A stretch of 64,000 nt of DNA from Vermamoeba vermiformis (taxonomy: Eukaryota), in contig JBEWZL010000003.1 in the NCBI GenBank assembly GCA_045837725.1, positions 1-64,000 on the forward strand, given 5' to 3'. This document shows, in pieces, positions 1,985 through 57,104 of this stretch. A program made the translations under genes and the position numbers. The notes under the pieces were generated by a model that was not told the origin of the DNA, ran no database searches, and saw only the letters and a list, made by a program, of their open reading frames with translations. Position 1 is the stretch's first letter; each line of letters opens with the position of its first letter.

Positions 1985-2986
1985 CTAACGCGGAAAAAAC
2001 TGCACAAACTCGCGTGTGCCAACAACATACCGCTCCAGAAACTCGGAGTCGCAGAGCTTAGAGGCCACCGCTAGTGGCACCTCTGACTTCTGCTGCACAG
2101 AGAACGTGACATAACGCTGGTAAGCATCGGAGACCCAGTCTCCTTGCAGCTTCACCATCGTTTCGTCACAACCTGCAATGAAAGCGCAAGTAGCGCCTCC
2201 TTTGCGCAGAGAGTGGCCCGAGTACTTTGACGGGTCGAGGCCCACGAGAGCGCAGAAGTGCTTGATCAACTTGCTGAAGCGTGAGCGAAGCAGGGGCACC
2301 GTACGGCCTTTGGAGTCCACGTAGACGAAGATAGATGGAGAAGCGCCAGGCGGGGCGAGCTCCCACATGTCATGTAGTGCAGCTAACGGGCACATGGCGT
2401 GGCCCTTCACTGAACGAACCGGGATGAGTAGCGACCTTTCGAACTGTACTGTTTTCGTGCGCGACAGCGTGATGTGGTAGCCTTCTGGTGACACGTTGGT
2501 GATGCTCGTAACGGCCACGTGCTGCCCAGGAACGAAGGCCTTTGCCGAGGTCAACAGCAAGTTGCTGCCGCGGAGGAAAGTCCAGAAACCGATGCAGAGG
2601 GCTGCCCAGAACGTGCGATGCAACGAGGAGGCCCAATTCAGGCGGCCACGGATCGCCATCAGTTCAACTGGAGTTAGTGGGGCCTTCGACATAGGCCTGT
2701 ATTGTTGATAACGACGTACACCTGCCATAGTTGACGACACCAAATGTCTGTCCACTTGCGTAGTCACGGGGTCTGGGTGCCGTGCTGCCAAGTGAAACTG
2801 GCGTATATGAACCAAGTACGTGGTGATAGAACCAGCCTTGACGCCCGACGAGGCCAACCAGGCGGCGTACTCGCACAGGACGTCGGAGTTCGTGGGGCAG
2901 AACGAGAGCTTGTAGTAGATGCAGAAGCGAGCGAAGGCTCTGACTGCGTTGTCTCTGCCTGCAGAGGTCGACTCTGCCAGGCTCAT
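1985..2986 (-). CDS. Tyrosine recombinase (integrase) of the retrotransposon
   Basis: FWTFLRGSN (catalytic R), RTKT (K), GHSLRKGGAT (HxxR), QGDWVSDAYQRY (W and catalytic Y). Confidence 0.95.
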   Translation of the reverse strand: MSLAESTSAGRDNAVRAFARFCIYYKLSFCPTNSDVLCEYAAWLASSGVKAGSITTYLVHIRQFHLAARHPDPVTTQVDRHLVSSTMAGVRRYQQYRPMSKAPLTPVELMAIRGRLNWASSLHRTFWAALCIGFWTFLRGSNLLLTSAKAFVPGQHVAVTSITNVSPEGYHITLSRTKTVQFERSLLIPVRSVKGHAMCPLAALHDMWELAPPGASPSIFVYVDSKGRTVPLLRSRFSKLIKHFCALVGLDPSKYSGHSLRKGGATCAFIAGCDETMVKLQGDWVSDAYQRYVTFSVQQKSEVPLAVASKLCDSEFLERYVVGTREFVQFFPR

Positions 2987-4683
2987 AGCGCGAAACTCTG
3001 CGGCTCTAATGATGCAACGTTGATGACAGGTGCATGGACCATCATAAGGTTATTATCTAGTTCAAGCATTTCGGCAATGTGCCCGCGTGAGCCTGCATCC
3101 GCTAACCTGTTGGTGACACCGCTGATGTGTCTGGCGGTGATATGAAAGTTGTGGAGAGCTGACAACCAAAAGAGGTCGCGTAGCATCGCCATAATACGGC
3201 GAGAGGGCAACGAGCCCTTGTTGATTGCAGAGACTGTAGCCATGTTGTCTGATTCGACCAAGAGGTGCTTGTTTGCCCACTCGGAGCCCCATCGCTTAGC
3301 AGCCAGGTAGACCGATAGGCACTCTGTCTCGTTGATGTGCCAACCCGCGGTGAGCTGGCAGTGGGGCTGCACGAAGAACTGTTGATCAAAGACTGCACAG
3401 CAGCCCCAGTTGGAGGCATCGGTGACGAAGTGTTGCTCCCCAATAGGCGTAGGGTCGATCATGATAGCCTTGCCATTCCACTGCGACGAGAAACGCAGCC
3501 ACCAATCAATATCGGCTCTGAATTCATCAGTCAAGGTGACCACATCATCATGGTCCTCGTATTCGTTAATTAAATCAATCATACGCCGGAGGAAGGTCCT
3601 GCCACCCTTCACCACCTTCGCTGCGAAGTTGAGCTTGCCGATGAGGCGCTCAACCTCGCGCTTTGTCGCCGTAGTGCGGTCCATGAAGACTTGGAGCAGC
3701 TCGAGGATCTTATGGAGCTTTCCTTCTGGCAACGACAGCTGACGCTCTGCGATGTTGATACGAATGCCCAGAAAAACCAAGTCACGGCACGGTGGCACCA
3801 CCTTATTCTCAGCAATGGGCCAGCCCATGTCTGTCAAGCACGCTCTGAACTGCTCGTGGTCGAGAACCGCGTTGTCCATCGCTTCCTCGAGAGTGACTCC
3901 ACTCGAGAGGACCAGGAAGTCATCGATGTAGGGCTCAGAATGCTCTACGTCGTAGCTGTTCACGGCCGTGCGCGCAATGTAGTTCGAAATGCGCCAGAAC
4001 ACCCACGGGGCTAAAGCCAGGCCAAAGCACATACGGAGGTCCACGTAATAGTGGCCATCCCACCAGAAACCAAACAGGTGCCAGTGGTCTGGGTTAATCG
4101 GGACGTGCCTGAAAGCAGCCTTAATATCGAACTTACTCGCCACGACGTATTTGGGGCCACATTTGAAGATAAACTTGACGGCGTCGTCAACAGAAGAGAA
4201 GTGGAACTTGGTGGGGTGTTTCGTGAACTCGTTGAGGTTGCCCACCTTGGGACGACTGAGGTCAGTGATACGGCGCCACTTGCCATCGCCTTTCTCCACC
4301 GCACCCAACGCGTTGACCTTGTATGGGTGGCAGGGGACTCGCGCAATGTAGCCATTCTCTAGCTCGCTGCAAATGTCTTCGTCGATTGCATTCCAGCAAT
4401 TTTGCACGCTACTGTAGTTGGCCAAATGAGTAGACGGTACTGTGACACCTGGGCCAACCACTGAAAGACCCCCGCCCGGTGCGAAGAGCTCTCTCATAAA
4501 GGCGCCATCCTCGTCCTTGTAAGAGAGCCCTGACCAGACAGGGTACTTCAGGGTCACAGCACTGGGTCGGGGGGTTACTTTGCCACTAAGTGAGCCCCCC
4601 CACTGGCGTTTGGGGACGGCCCAAAGACGATCAGCGGCTCGCCGGGGTGGCCTTGCGCCATATGGTGATCGGGGCTGTTGCAC
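2983..4683 (-). CDS. Reverse transcriptase-RNase H (pol), no obvious methyltransferase domain
   Basis: KWRRITDLS, KFDIKAAFRHVP, MCFGLALAP, YIDDFL; RNase H motifs VTDAS, HINETE, SDN, NRLADAGSR. The ORF begins at GTG and overlaps gag. Confidence 0.95.
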   Translation of the reverse strand: MQQPRSPYGARPPRRAADRLWAVPKRQWGGSLSGKVTPRPSAVTLKYPVWSGLSYKDEDGAFMRELFAPGGGLSVVGPGVTVPSTHLANYSSVQNCWNAIDEDICSELENGYIARVPCHPYKVNALGAVEKGDGKWRRITDLSRPKVGNLNEFTKHPTKFHFSSVDDAVKFIFKCGPKYVVASKFDIKAAFRHVPINPDHWHLFGFWWDGHYYVDLRMCFGLALAPWVFWRISNYIARTAVNSYDVEHSEPYIDDFLVLSSGVTLEEAMDNAVLDHEQFRACLTDMGWPIAENKVVPPCRDLVFLGIRINIAERQLSLPEGKLHKILELLQVFMDRTTATKREVERLIGKLNFAAKVVKGGRTFLRRMIDLINEYEDHDDVVTLTDEFRADIDWWLRFSSQWNGKAIMIDPTPIGEQHFVTDASNWGCCAVFDQQFFVQPHCQLTAGWHINETECLSVYLAAKRWGSEWANKHLLVESDNMATVSAINKGSLPSRRIMAMLRDLFWLSALHNFHITARHISGVTNRLADAGSRGHIAEMLELDNNLMMVHAPVINVASLEPQSFAL

Positions 4684-6128
4684 TTCGCACAGACATGCTT
4701 GTACTTGCAGCCATCATGACGACGAGTGTGTGGGCAGTTACCGTCTGCGTTCCACTTGTTGCACGGGTTCTCCGACTTGGTGCGTGCCTTTCTCACGGTG
4801 GCTCCGGTCTCTGTCTTATAACTGTAAGAATCGGGGAGCCGTGGATGCAGCTTAAAGCGCTCCAGCGGACACCCAGTCGTTCTCCAATTGTACAAACCCA
4901 TTTCAACGCCAGCTCTGAACTCTTCGTCAAAGTCCATGATGCTAAGCCAGGTGTGGGCCTCAGACAAGCCATTGATGTACGACAGGTACTCGATGTAGTC
5001 AGCGATGTTGAAAGCCGGGTTCTCTGACTGCAGAAGTTTCATAATCTTGAAGGCAGCCCCGGTGTACTCCAGGTGGCTAGCTGGGATCTTGCCTTTGGAG
5101 GAGCCTTCCGTAAAGTAACGTGGGAGGTAGACAGTCCTGGGGTTTGTGGGGTCTGCGAGGGGCACAGCCACAGCCAGAGGAACAGCCTTTGGAGGAGCGT
5201 AGGTAAGGTGCGCTAGTGGGGCCGTGCAATAGCGTTGGGGCTGTGGTGACTGCGCAGAGGGCGTCACCGGTCCTGGCGAGGGGGCTTGCAAGCCAGCTGA
5301 CTGGGTGCCCACCGAAGGGGCGCCAACAGTATGTGGGGCCAAGGCCGAAACTGGAGGAGTTGTAAACTGGGGAGGCGACGTTGCAGGTATGACAGTTTGG
5401 GCCGCAGGTGTGCCCTCTGTCTGTGCCAAGCTCTGAGGAGGAGTTGAAGACTGTGCAGAGTTGGCCTCCTTGACCTTGTGCATCAACGAGTCTGCTGCTG
5501 ATGAGAGATCCTCGTTGGCAGCGAGGTCCTTCGGGGTGGGCTGAGACGTCGAGCCAGGGTCACCTTGCATGCCCGTGGGGCGCGGCTTAACCTTGTAGGG
5601 CGTAGTCGCGAGGAGCCCCAAAGCGTTGGTGAAGGACTCGTAGAACTGAGGGTCGTTCTGTCGAAGAGACTGGAGGCGCGACGGATCAAGCGTGACGTTA
5701 TCCAGTTTCTGATTGAGTTTTCGAACAGCACGTACCGGTTGGACTCCTGCGTCCATAAGGGGGGCCACAATCGTCTTCAGTTCAGTGAGAAAGCCACGCT
5801 CCCGGAAAGAGTTCGCCAGGGAAGATTCCCAATCTTGGATCTCCAAGAAAATAGCAACTTTCTCGGGATCAGAGGGCGCCGTTGAGCCTTGCAGAATCGA
5901 ATCATCGATGACCACTGAGGCTAAAGCTAGGATCAGAAGTTTTCGGATCTCGGCAGGGTGCTTATTAGCGGTGATTTCCCGCCACTTCGCGATCAGCGAA
6001 AAACTCGCCAGGTTCGCAGAGGAGGCGTGATTAGCATCGCCAATAATCGTTTCAAGCGACTCGAAGTCAGAAGCCGCTTTCTTTGCTTGTTTCTTCTCTT
6101 TTCTCGACGTCATGAATAGATTTGACAA
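4575..6128 (-). CDS. Gag-like ORF1 of the retrotransposon
   Basis: Lies upstream of pol. Pro-rich centre, the segment WLSIMDFDEEFR and a C-terminal Cys/His finger CNKWN...C...CKYKHVCAKCNSPDHH, as in YR-retroelement Gags. Confidence 0.85.
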   Translation of the reverse strand: MSNLFMTSRKEKKQAKKAASDFESLETIIGDANHASSANLASFSLIAKWREITANKHPAEIRKLLILALASVVIDDSILQGSTAPSDPEKVAIFLEIQDWESSLANSFRERGFLTELKTIVAPLMDAGVQPVRAVRKLNQKLDNVTLDPSRLQSLRQNDPQFYESFTNALGLLATTPYKVKPRPTGMQGDPGSTSQPTPKDLAANEDLSSAADSLMHKVKEANSAQSSTPPQSLAQTEGTPAAQTVIPATSPPQFTTPPVSALAPHTVGAPSVGTQSAGLQAPSPGPVTPSAQSPQPQRYCTAPLAHLTYAPPKAVPLAVAVPLADPTNPRTVYLPRYFTEGSSKGKIPASHLEYTGAAFKIMKLLQSENPAFNIADYIEYLSYINGLSEAHTWLSIMDFDEEFRAGVEMGLYNWRTTGCPLERFKLHPRLPDSYSYKTETGATVRKARTKSENPCNKWNADGNCPHTRRHDGCKYKHVCAKCNSPDHHMAQGHPGEPLIVFGPSPNASGGAHLVAK

Positions 6129-6379
6129 TTCGAAAATCCAATGACAAAATTAAACAGAACACAAATAAGACTAAGGCAGAAAAAATAAATACGTATTAAC
6201 AAGCTGTTGTGTTAGCTCGTTGTTTAGCGTTCTGACACTTTAACCATTTTTGGCAATTGCCCAAATCTCACGCCTCAATCGCGTGACCATCAACCAGGGC
6301 TTACTTTTGGCCAAAGCGCTCGGCTGTAGCTGCGCTCGCCAGTTCCGGTGGCTAATTGCATGGCAATGTGGCGCCATAA

Positions 6380-50011: not shown

Positions 50012-51714
50012 ATGGAGCCTATTCATCAAGACAATGAATTACCCTTCGAGATTCTTCTCTCGTTGGGCGAACTGCTAGTGACGCGAGATCTGATCAACTT
50101 TGGTCAGGTCTGTAGAACTTGGAACCTCGCTACTACCTATATTCTCAGTAAGTACAATTATCGGCTTTTTTTGCATAGCGTTTATCGAGTTAGATAATTA
50201 TTCAGATTTTTTTCTAATTCTTGATTTTCAGACACATCCACGACCTTTGATTTTTATCGGTTCCGTCACTTCTTAACCGACGAGAATATAGCCGCCACGA
50301 TCGGTCGTTTACAAAACCTCGAGATCCTGGGTCTCGGTGGCTGCCGCTGGTTGACCAACAAAACCTTGCGCTTAGTCGCTGAGAATTGCAAAAAATTAAA
50401 GTAAGCATTTTGATTATAACATAATCACAAAAATATGCAAACTATAATATTAAGATGGAATTTTGGCCTTTAATTTCGATATTTTCGAACGTCAATTTGC
50501 AAGCCCTCAAATCCGGTTTTGTGTCGCATATTTTTAGCTTTTAATATTATTTATAGCATTTACTAATATTCAATATAACTAGAAAGCTCTACGTGTACCA
50601 TTTCAAAACAGCAGATGATTCCGTCTTCGAATCCTTCGCCAACAACTGCCAAGAGCTCGAAGTGCTGCACTTATATTCAGCAGGTCTCGCTACTAGTGCT
50701 GGAATGCAAGTCCTATCCAAGCTGACCAACCTCCGCGTATTGAACCTCAAGCGTTGTCCTATCACCGACGACGTACTTTGGCAGATTTGCCAAAGTTGCT
50801 CAAAACTGATGGTGTTGAATTTGAATGGGTGTGTTAAAATTACTAACCGAGGCCTTGATGCTATCACCGCTCATTTGAAGTAAGTAACCCAGATCCAGCT
50901 CGCTACATGAACTTACTATTCGCATCCAAAATTATTACTTTTTCCTCGTCGATCCAGTTAACGAGACCTTATTTAATATACATATCATACTTTTCATTAC
51001 CAAGCACGTCAATTAATCCATTTTGAACGGATCTTAAACTCGTTACAAATTTCTAACCTTCTTTTTCTTAGCACTCAGCTGAGTAAATTGGGTCTTTCTC
51101 ATACGCACGTCAGCGACGTTACACTACAAGAGCTGACTATATGCTCTAATCTCAAGAGTCTCATGCTCGAGAACGTTGAAAAACTGACCGAGTTCGCCTT
51201 AGATCCGCTCGTCAAAGCCTTAACGAACTTAGAAGCTCTCGACATTACTGGTGCTAGGTCTAAAAATGATCCTATTCGTCTGATAGGTCAATACTGCACC
51301 AACTTGAAATCGCTGCGGATGGAGCAATGTTCTCGCATCCACGACGCAGTGCTGATCCAAGTCTTGCGCGGCTGCACTCAACTCGAACGACTCTGCATTA
51401 ATGGCATGAAGAATATTACCGACACTTCAGTTAAAGTCTTAGCCGAAAACTGCACGCATTTGGTCGATCTTGAAACATCCGGATGTATCAAATTGACTGA
51501 CGAATCCGTCATCGAAGTGGCTAAGAATTGCACTCGACTGTTCTATTTGAATTTATCCCAATGTCGCAAGATCACTGATGCTGCAATTGAAGCTATCTGC
51601 GAACACTTGACGAATCTGAAGACGATCAACTTGTCGCAGTGTCCTAATGTCTCACCTCAAGCTGTTAATGCACTGCAAGTTCGTTATCCGCGCTGCATAA
51701 TCAAATATGTTTAA
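50012..51714 (+). CDS. F-box/LRR protein (FBXL-type)
   Basis: ELPFEILL...DLINFGQVCRTW F-box followed by Cys-containing LRRs (LNLSQCRKITD). Confidence 0.92.
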
Positions 51715-51998: not shown

Positions 51999-52388
51999 TC
52001 AGCTGTAGACTGCCCATATGATTATTCCTATGAGTAGCAATAAGGCTGCGGTACTTGCCGCAATTGCCTTTTTTCGAGGAGCACGCTCGTCTTTACGATA
52101 ATGCGTTTCATCCACGGGCCTGTTAGCCTGAACATTCTTCAATAATAGGCGAAGTGTCTCCTGATCTGCATTGGCTTTGAGTCCTTTCAATTTAGCAAAC
52201 TTTTGTAGACCACGATAATTAACTTCGTCAAAGTCGATAGTAGCAAACGCGCTTTCAATTTCTTCTTTTGTATTCACTCCTAAAGACAGTTTAAGATCAT
52301 TCAGGTCCTCTTCTGAGAGCGCATCCCAATTGCTGGAGTGGTCAAATATCTTGACGGAGTGCAACTCAATGTTTGTAGTGGTATTCAT
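51999..52388 (-). CDS. Small tail-anchored protein with a SAP/LEM-like helix-extension-helix
   Basis: NYRGLQKFAKLKGLKANADQETLRLLL and a C-terminal TM helix; intronless ORF. Confidence 0.6.
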   Translation of the reverse strand: MNTTTNIELHSVKIFDHSSNWDALSEEDLNDLKLSLGVNTKEEIESAFATIDFDEVNYRGLQKFAKLKGLKANADQETLRLLLKNVQANRPVDETHYRKDERAPRKKAIAASTAALLLLIGIIIWAVYS

Positions 52389-52515
52389 TGATTAGTTGTG
52401 ATACGAAGGTAATTAATTCAATCAGAAATCGTTACTGCCAAATTTCTATTCAGTAATCTCGCGGCACCTCCGCGTTGATTGACAGTGCAAAGTTTTTGGA
52501 TTGAACAGTACCACA

Positions 52516-54700
52516 ATGAGCGCCGTATCGTACTTTCATGCATTACCGCGAGAGATCAACTCGAAAATATTCTCTTACTTGCCACTCAGAAGCATCATAC
52601 GCAGTTTCGCAAGGTACATCTGGCCATTACGCTTGCATGTCATTTATTTAACTGTCCCTTACGTAGGTCTTCGAAAAATGCAGCTAATTTTGTGCAAGAG
52701 ATACTCTCTGATGGACTAGCAGCGCCTAATTCATTAAATATTCTAGTGACTGGTCTGCCAGGCGCAGGTAATTACGAATAAATAATTGCTATTATTTTTA
52801 AAATAACGATCCATATTGTAAGTGAATTAAACCAATTATTTGCTTCAGTTTTAAACGGATGTAAAAATTAAATTCAATTTAACGTTTTTTTAAGGCAGCA
52901 CAACCCTCTACAGCCGTTTAAAATCTGAACATGACCCTCATTCGCACATAAGCCAATTATCAGAGTCGAATGAGATCGTAACGAAACCACTCAAGCTTGT
53001 AGATGACAATTGGTACCAGATCTACGGCATTCAGCTTGAGAATATTCGTGCGAATATATGGCACGGCTCTACTAAGAAAGATTATGCAGCGATGATGTAT
53101 GCTCATTGTGGCGCTGTAAGTCATCCTCTCAAGGACGCTAAACTAAATCCGCTTGAACTGTTAATCATGTACTTATTCTACCATATACATAGTGCCAAGT
53201 AATATTATATATGGTGCCTTGTGGTGATATCGAGCAATGGAAAGCGAGAATTCAGCAAGATCTGATAACATACTTCGCTCTGACCATCAATGTTGAGTGG
53301 ATTTTCGTCATTAACAAAATGGATCAAGTGCAATATCAAGAGCAAGGTACTGCAATAGGTCCCGGCTAGTAATACTTATGACGTCTAATATAACTATTAG
53401 AGTATAACAAATGCGTGGAGGTCATCAAAAACTTGGCGGTGAAGGTGTTTGGAAGGAAACGGCTGAATCAACTTCACTTCGTGCCGATGACCGTTAATGA
53501 CATGTCAGTACCTATGAAAAGATATACTAATGCACATACGACATGGTTCAACTACAATGAATCGAGTCTATGGACCACTTTGAATAATGTCGCGAGTGAA
53601 AGAGGACATCCAAAGTACAGTCATCTTTTCAAAAAATTACACGCTACAATAGTTCAAAAATATACTAAACTAAGCACGCCCAATACACGTGTTTTAGGAG
53701 TATATATCCTAGGTAAGATATTGGAAGGCTAGTCCGATCGAAGATCTGATCCATAATTTTCTTAGACGGATGTGTCTCAATTGGCGATAAAATTCAGATT
53801 TATCCATTTGGCTTCAACAAAATTACTACCCTTTCCTATACACCTGAGCCCTCGAACGTCGAAGTCATCGAGATCCAATCCAATCACTCGTCACGTACAA
53901 TGGCCTTACCCAAGTAAGCCAAATTGATTTATACGTCCTCGTTATATAACGGTATATAATTATCATATTGCTATTAGCTCGTACGTCACACTAGGATTAC
54001 GGCTACAATGGCTGCATCCAATCAAGGTACGTACGGTTTGTCCAATTCTTTTCCTAATTTGGAATTAACATGTTACGCACTTCTCTACAGAAATTTCATA
54101 TCGTGCGTTACCCCGAAATAAAAGGCACCTATCGCAGCAACAATGGACCTGACAAGTACTTCCTCGCCTCTCTGCTCCACGTTGGCGATATTGTACCGGA
54201 GTACAAATGGAAAGGCCAGATCTCGAAGGTATGCTTCATGGCTATAAAAGTCAAATAAGTAATGGCCTATCAGGGATATACAGGCGCTATGCATAGTCTT
54301 GGTATCCGCGGCAGTGTCAATGTCGTGAGAATTTTGAGCATTTGGAAGGACGGCAAAAGTCTTGATTTAAAAGCAGTGCAAGAAGAGAGAAAGTGCATTG
54401 CTATTCGAAAAGGTAATAATAATAATAACAATAATAACAATAATAATGTCATAGTCGGAGTTAACTAGCTTACCATAACCATTTGTTTATTTAACAGGCG
54501 AGAGAGCTGAAGTAATTCTGGAGCGACCAAATCCAGTATCAACGTTGAATATAACCAAGCGCAGCTATTATCAGCAGTATAGTGACACCGTGCACGGTCG
54601 ATTTGTAATTTTGAATCAAAAATCACATGTCGTTGCTGTAGGCTCTGTGACTCGTGGATTTGCATACGACGACTGTGATTACGATCAATACAAATATTAA
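52516..54700 (+). CDS. F-box domain fused to a degenerate eEF1A/eRF3/HBS1-like GTPase (domains I-III)
   Basis: [23 protein letters not shown]-box; [52 protein letters not shown]...[11 protein letters not shown]...[18 protein letters not shown]; all joined by GT-AG introns. Confidence 0.8.
54415..54447. repeat. (AAT/AAC)n microsatellite in the last intron of the F-box-GTPase gene
   Basis: Read directly from the sequence. Confidence 0.9.
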
Positions 54701-54789
54701 AACGGAGTTTTGATGTGTAGTGACCGCCTTTTGTTTAAAATTGGGTTTATTTAATACTGAATGGAAATTACATGGTGACAATAACTCGC

Positions 54790-57104
<2,315 letters not shown>

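Follow-up and report, generated by a model that had tools for sequence, protein, structure and literature searches.

Does a gene in which an F-box is followed by a degenerate translation elongation factor encode a protein that is kept by the cell and, if so, what could such a protein be for? The question is raised by a locus of Vermamoeba vermiformis located on contig JBEWZL010000003.1 of assembly GCA_045837725.1, at positions 52516-54700 of the window, by which is meant the whole stretch of 64,000 nucleotides (positions 1 to 64,000, forward strand) that was analysed. A preliminary description of this DNA had proposed that an F-box exon is spliced in frame to a probably catalytically dead GTPase of the eEF1A family. 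The analysis reported here confirms that the architecture, an F-box joined to a three-domain EF1A-like pseudo-GTPase, belongs to a real, conserved and selected gene family, and that it is a new domain combination.

The locus forms a single gene on the forward strand, with 10 exons separated by 9 GT..AG introns of 45-127 nt (Table 1). The coding sequence of 1563 nt yields 520 amino acids and its lone stop codon is terminal, so that the F-box exon is indeed in frame with the G domain; of the earlier statement that the frame is intact over about nine exons the first part stands, while the count has to be corrected to ten exons and nine introns. The sequence strings singled out at that stage are all present, namely GLPGAGSTT at residues 62-70, across the joint between exons 2 and 3, the retained NKMD at residues 181-184, and GRFVIL...VVAVGSV at residues 487-505 of the spliced protein. 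It might be argued that the fusion is an artefact of the gene model and that the F-box and GTPase exons lie on different transcripts, since no junction is spanned by an RNA read. This is extremely improbable, because the same succession of exon 1, intron and exon 2, in the same phase, is found in a non-syntenic homologue, the GTPase frame lacks an ATG upstream (none was found in the frame of exon 2 over 52479-52767), and the gap between exon 1 and the divergent upstream gene is just 125 nt. Moreover, the first internal Met of the spliced protein is residue 133, downstream of both G1 and G3; the GTPase body thus lacks a separate start codon before that residue, and the F-box exon is required for the G1 region to be encoded.

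The homologue in question, L120, was the sole locus recovered by the metagenome scan. It is complete, with 10 exons encoding 512 amino acids, and 249 of the 502 residues aligned to the window protein are identical (49.6%). All nine introns (9/9) occupy the same positions and phases in the two genes, the differences in exon length between them are all multiples of 3, and exons 2 (101 nt) and 3 (221 nt) have the same length in both, whereas no synteny was found between the flanks of the two genes. Within the 64-kb window no paralogue of the gene was found.

Other members of the family are known as fragments. A phmmer search with exon 5 (103 amino acids) against 1.84 billion cluster representatives retrieved, at E <= 1e-3, four proteins of 111-219 amino acids (P0001-P0004) showing 37-49% identity. 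All four are open reading frame (ORF) fragments reading through in-frame introns, deposited in JGI/IMG, ENA, Logan and MetaClust. A profile search returned 5 proteins among 1594 candidates, 4 of them already in the query and the new one, P0006, covering exons 5-6. In the public metagenome data there are, beyond L120, four fragment clusters (P0001, P0003, P0004/5 and P0006). P0001 carries the source label 'translation elongation factor EF-1alpha', but what it actually contains is exons 4 and 5 of a relative of the F-box pseudo-GTPase, with the intron between them read through. Word-indexed protein searches with exons 4 and 5 gave no match, a result that is uninformative because the index also missed P0001 and P0002, which have a 12-residue block in common with exon 4; a protein-cluster recognition search with exon 5 returned unrelated clusters, with sub-threshold recognition, and was set aside. 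None of the annotated protein collections searched contains the family, which appears as six metagenomic ORF fragments, one of them mislabelled; routine annotation would consequently miss or misname it.

Purifying selection can be read from the gene at two time depths, between homologues and between haplotypes. In the comparison with L120 the proportion of synonymous differences (pS) is 0.70, near saturation, and that of non-synonymous differences (pN) is 0.32, and the ratio of the corresponding substitution rates (dN/dS) is ~0.21. In addition, a DNA run with the same organism label (X1) contains over 52250-54850 a second haplotype, or a close paralogue, of the locus. The differences listed number 36, half of them intronic (18) and half exonic (9 synonymous and 9 non-synonymous), and give a pN/pS of 0.31 (P = 0.013 for <=9/18 non-synonymous under neutrality), with 7 more differences lying outside that list. 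All of the indels between the haplotypes (7/7) are non-coding. The density of single-nucleotide variants is 2.4% in exons 1, 2, 3, 9 and 10 vs 6.0% in introns 1, 2, 3 and 8; differences are dense in the flanks, and 8 fall within the 53-nt intron 1. Among the amino acid replacements, 7/9 affect positions that also differ from L120, and A140T and G487S affect conserved residues. The earlier view that the locus is not a pseudogene is supported by the intact frame and by both ratios.

At the level of sequence, residues ~51-505 are recognisable as a copy of a translational GTPase of the EF1A type, diverged but with all three domains. For this comparison archaeal EF1A genes were collected by a DNA pattern for the P-loop, which gave 119 loci comprising a mix of aEF1A, CysN, SelB-like and other genes, and profiles were built from 24 archaeal EF1A sequences or, in a cleaned version, from 22. 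The 24-sequence profile scored 33.3 bits with the spliced protein, the best of 2000 shuffles reaching 4.9 bits. The cleaned profile gave 35.3 bits with the window protein and 58.3 bits with L120, and a CysN profile 16.8 and 48.5 bits, respectively. The HMMER alignment of the spliced protein is collinear over profile positions 132-390 of 423. With hhalign, the single sequence aligned over residues 54-498 to positions 7-414 of a template of 425 with a probability of 96.2%, and a profile of the window protein and L120 aligned over 381 columns (query 54-497 vs template 7-413 of 425) with a probability of 98.1% and an E value of 9.8e-14. The segments previously assigned to domains II and III of the EF1A family are borne out by this alignment, which is collinear over all three domains.

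Pfam scans were made with contiguous exon-sized pieces (9 for the gene), the spliced full-length protein being compared only with the profiles built here. In such pieces the GTP_EFTU domain remained below its cut-off of 26.5, with 15.8 bits for exon 4 (E 0.011, profile positions 112-137 of 188), 21.2 bits for P0001 and 20.6 bits for P0002, and the Pfam domains for D2 and D3 had no match; exon 10 gave a chance-level match and 6 other pieces of the gene gave none. Searches of solved structures were similarly unproductive: the one match of exon 4 was judged to be due to chance, the profile of P0001 and P0002 had 0 matches, and the 48 matches of an exon 10 profile, most of which were variable domains of antibody heavy chains with a '..GRF..' string in common by chance, next to a few Pur-alpha chains, were discarded as uninformative.

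The G domain has lost its catalytic residues. In P-loop GTPases, phosphate and Mg2+ are contacted mainly by three residues, namely the Lys of the P-loop, the Thr of switch I and the Asp of G3. In the alignments with archaeal EF1A, the G1 motif GHVDHGKST corresponds to GLPGAGSTT, with Ser in place of Lys, in the window protein and in L120 alike, in agreement with the altered P-loop noticed at first. Some 17 residues of switch I, including the Thr of RGITID, are deleted in both. The G3 motif DAPGH is aligned in both genes to HGSTK, with loss of Asp and Gly as well as of the catalytic His, which is replaced by Lys. The preliminary description had found no evident DxxG; the absence is real but was understated, the aligned positions reading H..T and the damage extending to the catalytic His and to switch I. 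Conversely, NKMD (G4) is kept in the window protein, in L120/P0002 and in P0001, and the C-terminal GRFAIRD..TVAVGV is aligned to GRFVILN..VVAVGSV. Out of 86 columns that are invariant among the 22 archaeal EF1A sequences, the window protein retains 24 (12/50 in the G domain, 4/22 in domain II and 8/14 in domain III) and L120 retains 23. As judged from these alignments, the loss of the G1 Lys, the switch I Thr, the G3 Asp and Gly and the catalytic His excludes GTP hydrolysis by the classical mechanism for the predicted protein, and nucleotide binding by the EF1A-like module is doubtful.

What would formerly have been the nucleotide pocket is, without its catalytic residues, the most conserved part of the predicted protein. 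Identity to L120 amounts to 22/25 (88%) in the G1 block, 22/34 (65%) in the G3 block and 25/38 (66%) over residues 151-190, which surround NKMD, as against 55% for the F-box, 45% for domain II, 47% for domain III and 1/15 (7%) for the tail; a 19-residue block at the Lys-less P-loop, the string HGSTKK, a 16-residue block with NKMD and the string GRF..QKSHVV are identical in the two proteins. The former description of the module as probably catalytically dead is therefore appropriate for hydrolysis, but it cannot be extended to ligand binding, given that no other parts are as well conserved as the P-loop, NKMD and G3 blocks. Drift would be expected in a pocket that is dead and unused, and the high identity of these blocks against 49.6% overall, together with the NKMD kept in P0001 and P0002, has led us to consider that the pocket is occupied, with either a guanine nucleotide or some other anionic ligand being bound without hydrolysis and gating substrate capture. 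This explanation is rather unlikely, as none of the three phosphate- and Mg2+-contacting residues (P-loop Lys, switch I Thr, G3 Asp) is present, and as the conserved blocks include core beta-strands, so that their conservation could be structural.

The placement of the module among translational GTPases was assessed with a maximum-likelihood tree of 39 rows, none of which is an HBS1, Ski7 or GTPBP sequence. The eukaryote-type comparators were taken from giant-virus contigs and included three eEF1A-type sequences, many EFL-like sequences and one eRF3-like sequence (L203). The window protein and L120 are sisters, with a support of 100 in the Shimodaira-Hasegawa-like approximate likelihood ratio test (SH-aLRT) and a stem of 4.9 substitutions per site. 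The pair falls within the EF1A-like clades, split from EF-Tu (SH-aLRT 100), and is loosely attached to the giant-virus EFL-like group (SH-aLRT 91), the other deep nodes being without resolution; it does not group with the sole eRF3-like comparator, in a tree whose deep nodes are weak and in which the stem of the pair is long. Pairwise phmmer scores for the subfamily are low and noisy. An affinity with EF1A-type factors, apart from EF-Tu, is in line with what had been anticipated. The stretch after NKMD may resemble HBS1-type factors. Among the comparators themselves, the eRF3-like gene L203:2572-3957 (-), from a giant-virus bin of IMG/VR, scores 415 bits to human eRF3a; other giant-virus bins of that collection hold near-identical eEF1A-type genes and many EFL-like genes (L122-L124, L125-L158), the latter having yeast eEF1A as best PDB match and, in L130 and L135, an altered P-loop start, GEVDAGKSS.

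At the other end of the protein, the 32 amino acids of exon 1 alone match the Pfam families F-box-like (PF12937; E 1.7e-4) and F-box (PF00646; E 7.5e-3), the match covering profile positions 2-23 of 47. Exon 1 of L120 scores 26.4 bits with F-box-like (E 5.9e-6) and exceeds the cut-off of 24.3, and the core LPxEIxxKIFxYLP is identical in the two genes. The remainder of the F-box, encoded by exon 2, is too diverged to be matched by Pfam, and no match to it was obtained in the read-through ORF of L120 either. F-box proteins usually have their F-box at the very N-terminus, with a large domain behind it. The most economical reading, to which we give an even chance, is that of an F-box protein using its EF1A-like module as a receptor for the substrates of an SCF (Skp1-cullin-F-box) ubiquitin ligase: the N-terminal F-box would dock on Skp1, the EF1A-like module would serve as the substrate-recognition domain, and the recognition surface may consist of the remodelled, strongly conserved region of the nucleotide pocket together with domain III. 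Skp1 binding, the ubiquitin-ligase function and the assignment of partners to surfaces are what we infer; the substrates put forward earlier, namely partners of eEF1A, eRF3 or HBS1 or stalled ribosomes, are hypothetical as well.

Several observations weigh against this reading. The F-box profile is matched, in both genes, only at positions 1-23 of 47; the window copy, with 21.7 vs 24.3 bits, is under the Pfam cut-off; and the Trp usual in helix 3 is missing from both genes. The piecewise scope of the Pfam scans and the differences left outside the pN/pS estimate count on the same side, as does the read depth over 53345-54231, which is that of a single haplotype (~520-560 vs 900-1000), so that over this interval the second haplotype may be deleted or too divergent, with possible damage to one allele. 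A current function is called into question mainly by expression, the gene being silent or very weakly expressed in the RNA sampled. Three RNA-seq runs labelled as the same species were used, at 92% likeness and with ~13 million reads each (~46-48% of the run); together they contain one read on the gene (X9, 52685-52771) and no junction-spanning read, whereas the convergent dihydrolipoyl dehydrogenase gene, the 3' end of which makes up the last 78 bases of the mapped stretch, has a summed depth of ~15-30 there. The RNA strain differs from the assembly at 4 fixed sites within these 78 bases, yet the majority of its reads are 95-99% alike, and mismapping is thus an unlikely cause of the low coverage.

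The weakness of the F-box match suggests that the EF1A-like pseudo-GTPase may be a scaffold that does not act via SCF, its F-box-like helices being otherwise used or binding Skp1 outside a cullin ligase, in which case the protein would be a stoichiometric, Ski7-like adaptor or decoy for EF1A-type partners. Degenerate paralogues of translational GTPases that act as non-catalytic binders are known, examples being Ski7 (PMC4509514) and aSelBL (PMC3037878). This alternative is unlikely, for the LPxEIxxKIFxYLP core has been conserved despite 50% overall identity and the F-box of L120 passes the Pfam cut-off. The extreme N-terminal position of the motif before a large domain, usual among F-box proteins, also speaks against it.

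The expression data, for their part, come close to what would be expected of a locus that is silent, a recently disabled or dispensable lineage-specific chimera without present function. The absence of expression named at the outset as a ground for abandoning the proposal is nearly what was found, with 0-1 reads per run vs 15-30x on the neighbour, but the neutral evolution named alongside it was not seen (dN/dS ~0.21). The family is also rare (4 matches in 1.84 billion representatives), 2/9 of the non-synonymous haplotype changes, A140T and G487S, affect residues conserved in L120, and the second haplotype is possibly lost or strongly divergent in the middle of the gene. We nevertheless consider a functionless chimera quite improbable: the 10-exon frame has remained intact in two genes at a pS of 0.70, both selection ratios are low, the haplotype indels are solely non-coding and the intron positions are conserved without exception.

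The exons and the features they carry are collected in Table 1. Within intron 9 an (AAT)n run (54420-54450) would read in frame as poly-Asn; the interval 54406-54451 was flagged as a repeat and reads appear to be cut there.

Table 1. Exons of the F-box/EF1A-like gene, in window coordinates
Feature	Coordinates	Strand	Content and basis
Exon 1	52516-52613	+	Start codon and N-terminal half of the F-box (LPxEI..KIFxYLP); Pfam
Exon 2	52667-52767	+	Diverged second half of the F-box, linker, strand beta-1, start of the P-loop, GLPGAG (52752-52767)
Exon 3	52895-53115	+	End of the P-loop, STT (52897-52905; Ser in the place of Lys), shortened switch I, G3 remnant WHGST (53059-53073); archaeal EF1A alignments
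Exon 4	53193-53346	+	Core of the G domain, retained G4 NKMD (53313-53324); Pfam GTP_EFTU, E 0.011
Exon 5	53401-53712	+	C-terminal part of the G domain, linker, start of domain II; within the hidden Markov model alignment
Exon 6	53766-53913	+	Domain II beta-barrel (10-residue block); exon 5/6 structure the same in P0006
Exon 7	53978-54026	+	Domain II, continuation
Exon 8	54091-54228	+	End of domain II, start of domain III
Exon 9	54274-54412	+	Domain III; 12-residue block aligned to EF1A GYTPVFH.HTAQ
Exon 10	54498-54700	+	End of domain III, GRFVIL (54596-54613) followed by VVAVGSV; unconserved acidic tail; TAA stop

The window is a piece of a eukaryotic chromosome of ~42% GC, and the genes around the locus include a GH31 glycosidase, a dihydrolipoyl dehydrogenase, an Hsp70, a reverse-transcriptase element and a leucine-rich repeat (LRR) protein. 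The LRR protein corresponds to an open frame of 245 amino acids (50977-51711, +; LRR_4 E 4e-14, with weaker matches to repeat families of the F-box/LRR type) that lies ~0.8 kb upstream of the F-box gene. Between the two is a small divergent gene (52003-52390, -), the start of which is 125 nt from the ATG of the F-box gene and whose product ends in a C-terminal hydrophobic stretch that looks by eye like a tail anchor. On the other side, the dihydrolipoyl dehydrogenase gene (Pyr_redox_2 and Pyr_redox_dim, 55001-56047, -) is convergent; the stop codons of the two genes are ~90 nt apart (54700-54800), and their 3' ends therefore probably overlap. Near the beginning of the window, a probable retroelement (1985-6149, -) has a G+C content of 55-56% vs ~42% elsewhere and long open frames, one of which matches the reverse-transcriptase domain RVT_1 (E 1e-8).

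F-box receptors decide the degradation targets of the cell, and EF1A-type GTPases decide entry into the ribosomal A site. If F-box and EF1A are joined in a conserved fusion, this would be a natural experiment in which a translation-factor fold is re-used as a recognition module, and the disappearance of the catalytic residues from a pocket that is nonetheless the best conserved part of the protein poses a testable question, namely whether a ligand is bound and what is presented to the ligase. In full-text searches of the literature no description of an F-box joined to an EF1A-type domain was found, and co-occurrences of 'F-box' and 'GTP_EFTU' were, in the portions of text retrieved, unrelated to such a fusion; in a survey of translational GTPases (PMC4342817) 'F-box' and 'ubiquitin' occur 0 times in the main text, while its supplementary distribution tables might list odd members. 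A more specific proposal can be made, which we regard as speculative and improbable in its entirety: the protein would represent a previously unrecognised class of cullin-RING receptors, with an EF1A-like module that mimics eEF1A, eRF3 or HBS1 and captures what normally binds to these factors, be it a tRNA-shaped factor such as eRF1 or Pelota, the exchange factor eEF1B or a stalled ribosome, and with a Lys-less P-loop 'nest' that reads a ligand or a phosphorylated degron. If this were true, translation surveillance would be tied directly to SCF ubiquitination.

Among known systems, the closest in fold are the EF1A-type GTPases (aEF1A, eEF1A/EFL, eRF3 and HBS1), with which the F-box protein shares the order of G domain, domain II and domain III over ~445 residues, as well as NKMD and the C-terminal GRF...VAVG motif. 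Unlike them, it has lost the G1 Lys, switch I, the G3 Asp and Gly and the catalytic His, all of which those GTPases hold; and where eRF3 and HBS1 carry N-terminal extensions, an F-box stands in their place. The translational GTPase paralogue Ski7 (PMC4509514) and the degenerate paralogue aSelBL (PMC3037878) are comparable in that a translational-GTPase fold has been selected after loss of the classical GTPase cycle, presumably for binding, but neither is known to carry an F-box or ubiquitin-ligase module, and Ski7, according to the title of its report, still binds GTP. With the F-box receptors of SCF (PF00646, PF12937) the protein has in common an N-terminal F-box-like motif followed by a large and different domain; in those receptors the recognition domain is usually WD40, LRR, Kelch or similar, whereas here it would be an EF1A-like pseudo-GTPase. 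A precedent for joining an F-box to a P-loop NTPase is provided by the F-box DNA helicase FBH1.

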